In this document: positions 2,294-54,980 of the stretch, piece by piece
How positions within the stretch are numbered: the stretch's first letter is position 1
Layout: the number at the start of each line of letters is the position of its first letter
IMG/VR virus record: IMGVR_UViG_3300049573_000219
Coordinates: 123,034-187,033 of that record
Reading direction: 5' to 3' (one strand)
Length of the DNA: 64,000 bases
DNA from: a virus
Lineage: Duplodnaviria; Caudoviricetes
Program-made: the position numbers and the translations under genes
Notes under the pieces: generated by a model
What the model was told of the DNA's origin: nothing
Databases searched by the model: none
The model's input: only the letters and a program-made list of their open reading frames with translations

Positions 2294-5200
2294 ATGGCCC
2301 TGGTGAATACCCTGGTCGTCCGGTTCCGGGCATACGAGGCGAACGGGTCGCCGATCGGAGTCCTGCCGCATCCGCTCTCCTGGGAAGCGGGCATCCCGCT
2401 GAACGACATGCCGTCGCTCACGATGACCTACCCGGACGGCTCCGACGCGGCCAACCTCCTGAAGACGCCCTGCGAAGTCGCGCTTGAGCTGCGGGATCCG
2501 GTCACGGGCACCTTCACCGAGCACCCCGGGTGCCGGTTCATGAACATCCGCCGGTCCTTCGACCTGGCGGCCCGCCCCCGCATTCTCTCCTTCACGATGC
2601 CGTCGTACGGCTGGCAGCTCAAGAAGGTCCGCTGGATGGACCCCGACCTGCCGCGCCTGAACAAGGACGGACAGGTCGCCTACAAGACGGCCGTCTCGCC
2701 AGCTCTGCCGATCAAGGAGATCATCGACTACGCCAAGAACCGGGGCAACATCCCGGGTCTGACCTACTCCTTCACCGGAAGCGTGGACTCGGCGGGGACC
2801 GCGTGGGGTGTCACGATGAAGGGCAACTTCGACTACGGGCAGGATGCCTGGTCGATGATCGACGCCCTCTCCCGTCAGGGGTTCTTCGACTGGCGGATGA
2901 ACGGCCGGGCCCTTCAGCTCTACAAGGCCGACACGACTCTGCGCAGGCAGCTCGACTCGGACACGGGCGTGCACATCCACAGCATGCTCGGAACCACCGA
3001 GGAGCCGGTCGAACGCACATGGGAAGACCTCGCCGGGTTCATCGTCGCGATCGGTGACCAGCAGCTCATCTCCGGCATGGTCGAGGCGCCGGACTCGGTC
3101 GACTACCCGTGGGGCAAGTGGGACGAGGCGATCTCCGCATCCGGCGTGACGGACGTGCAGACGCTTGCACAGATCACCGACAATCTGCTGCTCACGAAGT
3201 ACAAAAGCCGCACCCAGTACACGAAGAAGTTCGTGTGGACCGAGGGCGCCCCGGTGCCCCTGGTGGACTACCGGCCGGGCGACTTCATCCGGGCCATGAG
3301 CGATGCGACGACAGGCGCCCAGAAGGCGTCCATGCGCGTCTACCAGGTCACGCTCTCCGGCACCGATCCGTACGGCGTGAACATCTCTCTCACGCTGAAC
3401 GACCGCTTCACGGACCGCGCACTTCAGACGGAGCGGTGGGTTGCCCGCGTCTCGGGCGGCGGCGGCTCGGTCGGAGGGGGAGGCACGGGCGCGGGCACCA
3501 AGCCCCAGAAGCCCGCACCGATCGACTCCACGCCGCCGAAGGCGCCCATCCTGAACACGGTCGTCAACGAGCCGTACTTCTCCGAACTGGGTGACCCGGT
3601 CTCGATGGCCGATGTCGCATTCCAGGTGGTGACCCAGGACGTCGAGAACCGGACGATCGAGATCCTGCGGTACAACGTTGCGGCCCGCCGCTCGGACTTC
3701 AACTGGCAGCAGGCGTTCACCGTTCAGGTGACCCAGCCCGACTCGCCTTCAACCGGTCAGGTCATTCACGCGAAGGTGCCACTGCTGGACTCGGGTTACA
3801 GCTACGAGTTCCGCGTTCAGGCGATCCGTGATTCCGGCTACGCATCCGCCTGGTCGAATGCCATCGTGCAGACGATGGGATACCCGACAACGGCTCCGGA
3901 AATCCCCTCTGCTCCGATCCTCTCCTCGAAGCTCAGCACGGTGAAGGCGGAGTGGGACGGGCTGGACGAGGTCGGCAACGGCTACCCGCCTGAGTTCCGC
4001 GAGATCCAGGTCGAGGTCTCTGTGGACAACTCGAACTGGTACCACGCGGGAGAGATCTTCTCCCCCGGCGCCTCGATCATCATGAGCGGCAAGGGTGGCA
4101 TCCCAACGTGGAACGTCGGGGACACGGTCTACGTGCGCTACAAGGCGATGAACAGCGCCTCGGTCATCTCGCCCGCTTCGGCCGTTTCATCGATCGTTGT
4201 TCTCGGTGTCGTCGGTCCTGACATCGCGGCCAACACCATCACGGCGAACAACATCGCCGCAGGAACGATCACCGCCGAGGAGATCAAGGCGCACAGCCTT
4301 TCGGTGGAGACGCTTTCCGTCGGCGATCCCAACAACCTGGTGATCGACCCGACTTTCTCCTCGGCCGAGCTGAACACGGCGCGCATCACGCAGGCTAACG
4401 ACTCCTCGGCTTCCGGCGTCCTGTGGTCCATCACGTCCGCTGGCGCCGTGCGCATCGACAACAACACGACCGCCAACTCGTTCAACCGGTTCGGCCTGAC
4501 CAACAACACCCTGGTCAACTACCCTCTCCAGACCTTCCCGGGTCCTGGCCTGTCCAGCAACGAGCTGGCCATCCCCTACACGCTGCCTGCCAACGCCTCG
4601 GGTGGCAGTGGCGCCATCAGGGCGCGCTTCGTGGTGACCGCGACCGGCATCCCGGCGAGCCCCGGCGCAGCGACGATCAACATCGCGATGCTGGCCCGCC
4701 AGTTCCAGCGCAGCGGTGCAGGTATCGGCTCATCGGGAACAGTCATCGCCGATTTCAGCATCACGGCGAATGGCACCTACACGGTTCAGTCCGTCAATGG
4801 GTGGACGCCAGCCGCTGGCACGGTCAGCTACATCCCCTACATCTACGTGAAGTTCGAGAACGGGGTTTCCGCAGATGTCGCCCTGGAGGTCACGCAGATC
4901 GAGGTGTGGCAGGAATCCTCGGTGTTCATCGGGAACGGTTTGATCAAGGCGCCCTTGATCGATGCGAATGCGGTGACCACGGACAAGCTCGATGCCGACG
5001 CCATTACGGCGAAGCATTCGATCCGTTCCGCCTACTACGAGATGACCAGCCAGTCCGGTGCAGCCGTCGTCAAGATCACCGAGAATGCCAACTATAACGG
5101 CCAGTCGGGAATCCGGTGGGACGGCCTGACGAACTACGGCCCTCGCATCTTCCAGGTCGACGCAACGGGTACGGGCGGCTGGGATCCGCGAGGCTTCGTC

Positions 5201-52891: not shown

Positions 52892-53073
52892 TGTGTGGAT
52901 GGGGTGCCCGGCCAACAGATAGGCCCCGGTGGCTCTTGCGAGCCTTCCTCGACCGACGCTCTGCCAATTGAGCTACCCACGAGAAGCCTCGCAGGTCAGG
53001 ACTCGAACCTGAAACATTCGGTTCCACTGTGAAGTAACCGTTGCCAAGACGCTCCGGGCACCTCACCCACACA
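52892..53073 (-). ncRNA. yrlA: YrlA-type Y RNA with permuted tRNA-like module
   Basis: About 20-bp terminal stem; T arm UCAGG-UUCGAGU-CCUGA precedes a closed acceptor-like stem, then UA and D arm GCUC-AAUUGGCA-GAGC; upstream of Ro60. Confidence 0.85.
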
Positions 53074-53081
53074 CTGAGCTA

Positions 53082-53240
53082 ACGGAAGGAACAGAGGGCC
53101 ACCGGCCAACAAGATGAGCCCCGGGGCGCCCGTTATGCCATGTGTCGGCGTCGGCGGGATTCGAACCCGCCCTCGTTCCTTTTTTGCAGAAAGAAGTAAC
53201 CGTTGCTCTGAACGCTCCGGTGACCTTCTGTTCCTTCCGT
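53082..53240 (-). ncRNA. Y-RNA-like RNA with T arm only
   Basis: About 24-bp terminal stem, shared CCGGAGCG...AACGGUUACUUC...UUGGCCGG core, T arm GCGGG-UUCGAAU-CCCGC. Confidence 0.75.
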
Positions 53241-53242
53241 CA

Positions 53243-53322
53243 TGCGCCCCGGCCAACTAAGTGACGCCCGGCTTGCTCTTCGCCAGATGAAGTAACCGTT
53301 CGTCTGAACGCTCCGGGGTGCA
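53243..53322 (-). ncRNA. Minimal Y-RNA-like RNA (no tRNA module)
   Basis: 80 nt with the same core; its 5' end coincides with the predicted TSS. Confidence 0.7.
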
Positions 53323-53328
53323 GATAAA

Positions 53329-53358
53329 ACATTACGCGATCCTGCGAGGGGATCGCAA
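53329..53358 (-). promoter_or_regulatory. Promoter of the Y-RNA array
   Basis: TTGCGA-N18-TAATGT, 6 nt before the first RNA; overlapped by inverted repeat GCGATCC/GGATCGC. Confidence 0.65.
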
Positions 53359-53363
53359 GGGGA

Positions 53364-54446: not shown

Positions 54447-54564
54447 TATGCACAGCGGGATTCGAACCCGCGAGCCGCCTGGATTCTCCAGATCCAGTCG
54501 GCCGCCTGCCTCCTCCGCTGGGACGGATTCAGCAGGCCCCCTTTGACCACTCGGGCATGTGCAC
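54447..54564 (-). ncRNA. Class-II tRNA-like RNA with 24-nt structured anticodon region and long variable arm
   Basis: Acceptor GUGCACA/UGUGCAU+A, D arm CCCGAGUGGUCAAAGGG, T arm GCGGG-UUCGAAU-CCCGC; no 7-nt anticodon loop. Confidence 0.75.
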
Positions 54565-54666
54565 CGCCGGGCTGATCGACCCGGCCCAGGTTCCGCTTGC
54601 AGAGGTCATGCGCCCATACGGGTCGTCTACACGGAACCAGAGGCTCTTCTTCCTCCTCTGCCTCAG

Positions 54667-54751
54667 AGTCCACGACGGGATTCGAACCCGCGTCTCCCCT
54701 CGCTGGCTTGACCCAGTAGAGGGGTGTGCTCGGCCGCTGCACTACGTGGAC
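54667..54751 (-). ncRNA. Class-I tRNA-like RNA with extended anticodon hairpin
   Basis: Acceptor GUCCACG/CGUGGAC, D arm GUGC/GCAC, T arm GCGGG-UUCGAAU-CCCGU; 19 nt between the anticodon-stem strands. Confidence 0.75.
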
Positions 54752-54905
54752 AGCCCGGCTTCCTCAAGGCCGGGCGGGCGGACTTCCGTCGCCGGGTAGC
54801 CAGCCCGGCTGTGCCTGTGACGGAAGCCCTCAGTGGCACGTCACCCCGTCACCGGCTTTCCCAGCAGGGGACGGGGGGATTGCGGTCACCATTTTGGTGA
54901 CCTTG

Positions 54906-54980
54906 TTGGCGGAGAGGGACTTGAACCCCCGGCCTCTTCCTTATCAGGGAAGCGCTCTGACCGAACTGAGCTACCCGCCA
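54906..54980 (-). tRNA. tRNA-Ile(GAU), CCA not encoded
   Basis: Full cloverleaf; anticodon arm CUUCC-CUGAUAA-GGAAG; U1-A72, A73. Confidence 0.9.

Follow-up and report, generated by a model that had tools for sequence, protein, structure and literature searches.

Three tandem elements on the minus strand of the window are very probably bacterial Y RNAs of the YrlA/YrlB type, and the phage's own Ro60 protein probably binds them. The window is the whole 64 kb stretch of DNA analysed and is the last part of a complete virus record of 187,033 bp with direct terminal repeats. The Y array, an RNA ligase gene and the Ro60 gene are all on the minus strand. In 5′ to 3′ order of that strand the features are:

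53362–53323 (−): upstream element, a hairpin and a U-rich run
53322–53243 (−): Y RNA unit 1, 80 nt, short and YrlB-like
53242–53080 (−): Y RNA unit 2, 163 nt including the full stem
53076–52889 (−): Y RNA unit 3, 188 nt including the full stem, YrlA-type
52886–52848 (−): intrinsic terminator 3′ of the array, with UUUUGCAUUUU after a GC-rich hairpin
52822–52070 (−): stand-alone ATP-dependent RNA ligase, 250 aa, motif I EKVDGTN
52050–50386 (−): Ro60/TROVE protein, 554 aa
50375–49884 (−): protein with a phage ProQ C-terminal-like domain, 163 aa (PF24203, 3e-17)

The nearest cultured relatives are the Streptomyces phages Frankenweenie, at 78% identity across the 5.4 kb that surround the finding, and members of the Satis group, at 71%. 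The Ro60 open reading frame matches Pfam TROVE (4e-14), PHROG 850 (4e-32) and the Ro60 of a Thermus phage (PDB 9KOP/9L5Y, 8.6e-15), and it is the single TROVE match in the whole 187-kb genome. The Y units are 0.8–1.3 kb upstream of this gene on the same strand, inside the limit of about 4 kb used to define membership. Directly 3′ of the Ro60 gene, also on the same strand, is the ProQ-like gene; its product may add another RNA-binding protein to the locus.

Every unit displays the arrangement CCGG-AGCG ... AA-CGG-UUACUUC-[module]-CCG-GG ... UUGG-CCGG. The sequence CGGTTACTTC is present in exactly three copies in the 64 kb, one per unit, and there are 7 sites when one mismatch is allowed, compared with 1.75 expected. 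A structure was drawn by hand from the window sequence, and all of its counted pairs (139/139) are standard in the window. An earlier note on this DNA had proposed three tandem units built on one shared core, and the core letters given there are exact.

The structure was then compared with an alignment (A2) of six phages: the window, Frankenweenie, three IMG/VR contigs (L015, L039 and L111) and Satis. In A2, 93.8% of the pair cells are paired, a percentage that leans to the window because the structure was drawn from it; the value is 39–45% when the 3′ partners are slid by 1–3 columns. Compensatory counts do not have this leaning. Thirty-two pairs change on both sides, as against 8.6 ± 2.4 in shuffles, and none of 500 shuffles reaches any of five measures; it should be noted that A2 holds four closely related rows and that its cells are not independent events. 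A wider sample of 38 short units from unrelated IMG/VR contigs shows the core to be 87.1% paired (33–50% when slid), with 13 core pairs changing on both sides. The inner helices GACG/CGUC, GAGC/GCUC and GGC/GCC all pair, and the covariation that the earlier note had seen in them is upheld. These claims of covariation are based on column-wise pair counts. A duplex-energy test of own versus foreign inner-helix strands was also tried and gave no discrimination (−3.08 vs −2.91 kcal/mol), since many 3′ anchors had been wrongly placed and strands rich in GC pair indiscriminately. The in-register form of the duplex test shows a modest difference (3.63 vs 2.60 extra pairs).

The base 3′ of CGG is paired. 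In the 38 short units the combination CGGN/N′CCG is UA 21 times, UG 6, CG 5, AU 3 and GC 1. In each window unit a downstream GAA(G) is the pairing partner of the UUC in UUACUUC, and UAC is then the only clearly unpaired part. Thus GUUACUUC, previously described as single-stranded, is so at UAC, but its first U pairs with covariation and its UUC closes a hairpin. UACUUC is invariant in the 38 short homologues. A YUAY element is conserved in Y RNAs (PMC4201824), and in the YrlA crystal structure a conserved UA kinks the stem (bioRxiv 10.1101/312249). UUAC is found after the stem and before the V region in 3/3 units, and the UAC of the core matches the published YUAY/UA element. The AA/GG internal loop, which had been taken as invariant, is constant in the window, Frankenweenie, L015 and L111, but is altered in L039 and Satis; in the wider family (the rows of a further alignment, A1) its place is occupied by variable mismatches or by a continuous helix.

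Y RNAs of the YrlA/YrlB type, encoded upstream of Ro60 genes, form a large family in actinobacteria and actinophages, and the three units are members of it. A covariance model of short units (R1) was made from 38 sequences. Unit 1 scores 40.8 bits with R1 (E 4e-6), a score that is not independent because unit 1 and three close relatives are in the training set. Units 2 and 3 score 14.5 and 11 bits with R1, which penalises long insertions, and this underscoring led to a second model (R2), made from 42 actinobacterial units with both T and D arms and with the window lineage excluded. R2 solved the problem. It detects unit 3 over its full length (64.7 bits, E 2.5e-11) and unit 2 over its full length with the acceptor-like stem deleted (29.1 bits, E 4.6e-4); a scan with R2 over the 187-kb genome gave no match beyond units 2 and 3.

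The Rfam YrlA model (RF02553) aligns with unit 3 at positions 53020–52950, i.e. the T, acceptor-like and D arms (33.8 bits, E 6e-5). This match covers part of the model and is below its gathering score of 69. Seven actinobacterial and phage relatives score only 42–52 bits with the same model, thus the missed gathering score is a property of the clade and not of this locus.

The 5′ and 3′ motifs of the units occur in arrays of 2–6 units directly upstream of Ro genes, on IMG/VR contigs as well as on the chromosomes of genera such as Streptomyces, Kitasatospora, Amycolatopsis and Nocardia. By our estimate, dozens of single chance hits to the 5′-motif pattern are expected in IMG/VR; the true members are arrays just upstream of Ro genes, and the products of these genes begin with MSKFN. 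A motif-based unit finder gave 285 distinct candidates, a number that includes chance single hits, and, because it uses exact motifs, it undercounts units. After weak single hits were filtered out, two-unit arrays, mostly a short unit followed by a tRNA-like one, account for 57 of 82 in chromosomes; arrays of at least three units account for 7 of 82 in chromosomes and 12 of 53 in IMG/VR. Ro-like genes were found in 252 phage records. Searches with R1 and R2 upstream of Ro gave three or four matches in the Gordonia phage VanLee and up to five in the Streptomyces phage LuckySocke, some of them weak, and a single match in mycobacteriophage Bxz1 (R2, 60.5 bits).

The three units have the same core and differ in the module that it carries. 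Unit 1 has a stem of 3+6 bp, then the putative Ro-binding helix, GACG/CGUC, the AA/GG loop and CGGU/GCCG, and its module is only a 4-bp hairpin, CUUC-AUCUGGC-GAAG. A single-sequence fold of unit 1 recovers the core, and the pairs are kept in relatives.

Unit 2 has a stem of 16 bp, an A.C mismatch and 9 bp, and the core shared with the other units. It was previously thought to carry a T arm only. This is incorrect: the T arm (53171–53153, 6 bp, loop UUCGAAU) is between a V hairpin (53195–53176, 6 bp, 8-nt loop) and a hairpin termed H (53150–53127, 4 bp, 16-nt loop). Within the four closest lineages the loop of hairpin H keeps its sequence, which includes UGGCA; these letters recur in the D loop of unit 3. 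Infernal places a D-arm-like 3-bp hairpin in unit 2, which shows no variation, whereas hairpin H covaries (CG to UA); H was kept and the 3-bp hairpin rejected.

Unit 3 has a stem of 13 bp, an A.C mismatch and 9 bp. A closing helix of 5 bp (53022–53018 with 52956–52952) encloses a T arm (53012–52996), an acceptor-like stem-loop (52995–52976, 8 bp) and a D arm (52973–52958). An extra hairpin at 52944–52931 has a GNRA cap, GCAA here and GAAA in relatives, and its stem shows a C-G to U-A change; this hairpin is lineage-specific. The fold of unit 3 has a z value of −2.8, and relatives retain its pairs through compensatory changes. The T arm, acceptor stem and D arm first read from the letters for this unit agree with the Rfam YrlA alignment, with R2 and with the six-phage pairs. 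Total lengths of 159 and 182 nt had been given for units 2 and 3; the full stems bring these to 163 and 188 nt, and the 80 nt of unit 1 stands.

The permuted order of T, acceptor-like and D arms is found in unit 3 only, in the Rfam and R2 alignments as well as in the six-phage pairs. Unit 2 keeps the T arm without the acceptor-like stem, and unit 1 is without all three arms. Units 1 and 2 share the putative Ro-binding stem of the co-encoded YrlA-type unit 3 and have a reduced distal module. The graded series of modules described in the earlier note is present in the window, but is not a fixed design. The middle unit of Satis has T, acceptor-like and D arms, and that of L039 is reduced to a degenerate hairpin whose T-like loop is mutated. 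In evolution the middle module is thus labile and the core constant. The description of the units as Y RNAs with modular effector ends, on the other hand, is sustained by their same-strand linkage to the sole Ro60 gene, by the covariance models and by the Rfam YrlA alignment. General mimicry of an anticodon loop (CU-NNU-AA) by the hairpin that follows UUACUUC was also considered and rejected, as a 7-nt loop is found there in only 28 of 110 T-bearing units and the sequences are heterogeneous.

The terminal stems of units 1, 2 and 3 pair over 9, 25 and 22 bp, and those of units 2 and 3 show 8 and 10 pairs, respectively, that change on both sides in relatives. Within the terminal stem is a conserved bulged helix, in which 5′ GG-AGCG pairs with UGUU, a GG bulge, then CC. 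The published motif of the 5′ strand, GNCGAAN0-1G, which is a putative Ro-binding site, was not found; the window has GGAGCGUUC or GGAGCGUCU at this place. The 5′ strand reads GAGCGUU or GAGCGUC, so that GCG is present and CGAA absent. In the wider actinobacterial family the strand is GGUGCG(A/C)AG, and in Satis GGUGCGA. The geometry of the bulged helix is kept: two nucleotides bulge from the 3′ strand, and a helix of 4 bp comes next. The window lineage has an A for the U of the family, and the partner A is changed to U, a compensatory change (UA 29, AU 4); its 3′-strand bulge is GG where the family has CU, and the letters CGAA/CGCA are absent. The putative Ro-binding helix is thus recoded in the window lineage, a feature that is novel locally.

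A single A.C mismatch occurs just outside the outer stem in every unit (53319/53246, 53226/53096 and 53063/52902), after 6, 9 and 9 bp, and, as read by eye, units 2 and 3 of Frankenweenie share it. It may be a determinant of a processing site.

A terminator-like hairpin is present on either side of the array. The upstream element (53323–53362), at which a terminator-like site was found, has a 7-bp hairpin (53356–53336; −11.5 kcal/mol, z −3.6) and overlaps a −35/−10-like pair, TTGCGA-N18-TAATGT, and a 7-bp perfect palindrome. It is near-invariant in the six phages, the distant Satis included. A sigma-70 consensus scan gave no promoter at this element, hence the promoter reading of TTGCGA-N18-TAATGT is based on conservation. 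The element could be the terminator of the preceding open reading frame, the promoter of the array, both of these, or an operator. The fold of the terminator 3′ of the array has −26.1 kcal/mol and a z value of −4.8, and a matching hairpin is found in all six relatives.

The position of the array raises the question of whether it acts in cis. It might be a structured leader of the ligase-Ro60 operon, containing autoregulatory sites for Ro60 or processing and attenuation signals, and would then not consist of trans-acting RNAs. The array is directly upstream of the ligase and Ro60 genes on the same strand, in Frankenweenie and Satis it abuts the Ro60 ribosome-binding site, and no independent promoter passes the consensus scan. 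In all six relatives, however, the strong terminator and its U run stand between the array and the genes, M. smegmatis accumulates homologous RNAs in a stable form bound to Rsr (PMC4201824), and the tRNA-like domain is conserved in a detail that a leader does not need. A leader is accordingly considered very unlikely. We give similarly little credence to the view that the units mainly act as tRNA decoys or sponges, which would occupy host nucleases that target tRNAs or host factors that bind them, with Ro60 as no more than a shield against decay. Two tRNA mimics and a tRNA gene are close by (54447–54980), both the T and the D arms show conservation, and some members of the family hold a tRNA body of normal order in the Y stem, all of which fits a decoy; but unit 1 and the middle unit of L039 are without a tRNA elbow and still keep the core, and this places the conserved function in the Ro-binding core and not in tRNA mimicry.

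It is extremely improbable that the units are degenerate tRNA genes or pseudogenes of the phage tRNA island with no link to Ro60. This idea would draw on ARAGORN, which calls unit 2 a tRNA-Cys, and on GenBank, where tRNA-Pro, tRNA-Arg and tRNA-Ser are annotated in the matching regions of Frankenweenie, VanLee and LuckySocke. The tRNA-Cys is a miscall that has no support from the tRNA covariance model: a search of 53322–52889 with Rfam tRNA (RF00005) gave no match at the gathering score for any of the three units, and the only tRNA-related Rfam match on the units is to tRNA-Sec (19 bits, E 1.5). In addition, the arms of unit 3 are permuted (T, then acceptor-like, then D), a covarying core unlike that of a tRNA is present in dozens of units checked by hand, and the units are strictly linked to Ro genes.

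The GenBank annotations lying inside Y units are gene 148 of Frankenweenie, tRNA-Pro(tgg) (L001 4942–5032), gene 125 of VanLee, tRNA-Arg(tct) (L247 1599–1670), and gene 36 of LuckySocke, tRNA-Ser(gct) (L246 1669–1742), which alone reaches the Rfam tRNA threshold (29.5 bits). These are most likely tRNA-like modules that have been mis-annotated.

Upstream of the array in the window, at 54447–54980 (−), are a tRNA-Ile(gat) and two tRNA mimics. In the mimic at 54751–54667 (−), 17 nt replace 5 positions of the anticodon loop of the tRNA model. A tRNA-Ser at 54519–54448 (−) is called by ARAGORN only. R2 aligns with no more than the T arm of one of these elements (14.6 bits).

Much of the arrangement has precedents. 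In M. smegmatis, Rsr binds YrlA and YrlB, both products of a single cleaved precursor, and a T arm is present in YrlB (Chen 2014, RNA 20:1715, PMC4201824). As in the window, the Y RNAs are encoded in tandem, in the same orientation as the Ro60 orthologue and upstream of it, and they show a UUAC (YUAY) element as well as a terminal stem whose 5′ strand is conserved; YrlA, like unit 3, has permuted T, acceptor-like and D arms, and YrlB only a possible T arm. The window differs in having three units instead of two, and in a phage; in the helix, with A-U for U-A, a GG bulge for CU and CGUU/CGUC for CGAA/CGCA; in the extra GNRA hairpin of unit 3; and in the 23–26 bp stems of units 2 and 3. The rsr-yrlBA-rtcBA locus of Salmonella also brings together Ro60, an RNA ligase and Y RNAs, of which one resembles a tRNA (Chen 2013; Hughes 2020, PMC7790460). 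There, however, two Y RNAs are downstream of Ro60 and the ligase is RtcB, whereas in the window the Y RNAs are upstream and the ligase is a small ATP-dependent nucleotidyltransferase (PF09414).

Among phages, the Ro60 of Thermus phage phiLo forms an assembly with host PNPase and binds a pair of Y-like RNAs encoded upstream of it (NAR 2025, PMC12135203). The phiLo locus (Yrl1, Yrl2) resembles the window in that a phage Ro60 has several Y-like RNAs directly upstream, and its Ro60 (PDB 9KOP, 9L5Y) is the closest solved structure to that of the window; unlike the window units, the phiLo RNAs are reported to have a CGAA motif, and their description mentions no tRNA-like domain. Cluster C mycobacteriophages, e.g. 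Bxz1 and ET08 (22 phages), have a Ro-like protein with a YrlA-like RNA (Chen 2014, PMC4201824). Bxz1 shares with the window an actinophage Ro60 gene and a YrlA-type RNA upstream of it, but only one unit was detected, and the Ro proteins of Bxz1 and the window have an identity of only about 25%.

Multi-Y-RNA loci, a second Y RNA with only a T arm, one-precursor processing, modular effector domains, phage Ro60 with upstream Y-like RNAs, and the link between Ro60 and RNA ligase are therefore already published (PMC4201824, PMC12135203, PMC7824862, PMC7790460). The interchangeable adaptor is likewise the published working model for Y RNAs (PMC4201824; Wang 2018, bioRxiv 10.1101/312249). New locally are the unannotated three-unit array in Streptomyces phages with its labile middle module, and the ATP-dependent ligase between array and Ro60 in this phage only.

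The ligase open reading frame matches Pfam PF09414 (1.3e-17) and PHROG 548, RNA ligase; a PDB sequence search and NCBIfam gave no match. Frankenweenie and Satis are without a gene at the position between the array and Ro60 where the ligase is located. Phage homologues of the ligase were found in Nodularia phages only (34% identity). In these comparisons, the insertion of the ligase is specific to this phage. Searches of the genome gave no RtcA, RtcR or RtcB and no end-healing kinase (AAA_33). Without RtcB and the AAA_33 kinase, the ligase would need 3′-OH/5′-phosphate ends or end-healing enzymes of the host.

If the three elements are Y RNAs bound by Ro60, the array would be made as one precursor, as for YrlA and YrlB of M. 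smegmatis. The near-perfect 23–26 bp stems of units 2 and 3 would be cut, most plausibly by host RNase III, for which their length suffices, and a cut at the stem of unit 2 would also free unit 1, since this stem starts at 53242, next to the end of unit 1 at 53243. Ro60 would bind the bulged helix and stabilise each RNA, and the distal modules would gate Ro60 or tether it to different partners. In unit 3 the tRNA-like domain would engage proteins that recognise the tRNA elbow, with units 1 and 2 as reduced versions. The neighbouring tRNA genes, tRNA mimics, RNA ligase and ProQ-like protein point to a role in RNA quality control, surveillance or repair during infection, likely directed against tRNA-cleaving defences of the host, or in the recruitment of host PNPase. 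Recruitment of PNPase, by analogy with phiLo, is equally possible. With neither an end-healing kinase nor RtcB, a complete repair pathway is not evident.

A more far-reaching proposal, which we regard as unlikely, is that array and ligase form an RNA-repair or decoy machine private to the phage, in which the three adaptor RNAs direct Ro60, and perhaps the ligase, to different tRNA-related targets. Were this so, the recoded helix would keep the phage RNAs apart from the Rsr/Y RNA system of the host, the middle unit would be a naturally minimised mimic of the tRNA elbow, and the lineage would be a ready-made deletion series for finding the binding partner of the YrlA tRNA-like domain.

The lineage provides natural variants of one scaffold: one with no elbow, one with a T arm and a large-loop hairpin, and one with a full tRNA-like domain. 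Relatives add a fuller or a more decayed middle unit to the series, and the cultured relative Frankenweenie, which shares the array of three units, is available for genetics. An ATP-dependent ligase in the place of the bacterial RtcB is a second, independent link between Ro60/Y RNA and RNA ligation. The family is unannotated in actinophage genomes, and the tRNA counts of phages are inflated because parts of it have been entered as genes for tRNA-Pro, tRNA-Arg and tRNA-Ser.

Several other members of the family display unusual features. The largest array seen, in the IMG/VR contig L113 (about 2490–3390, units on the minus strand), has six tandem Y-type units with mixed modules. At L027:299–437 (−) a tRNA body of normal order (D, anticodon-like and T arms) is inside the Y stem; positions 328–393 score 40.2 bits with Rfam tRNA and are called tRNA-Thr(ggt) by ARAGORN. 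A second such body, at L112:2920–3061 (+), is read from the alignment row only, and ARAGORN gives no call there. In LuckySocke (L246 3862–4094, plus strand), a sequence between tRNA genes downstream of Ro matches the Rfam manA model at 47.8 bits (gathering score 55.2, E 7e-10).
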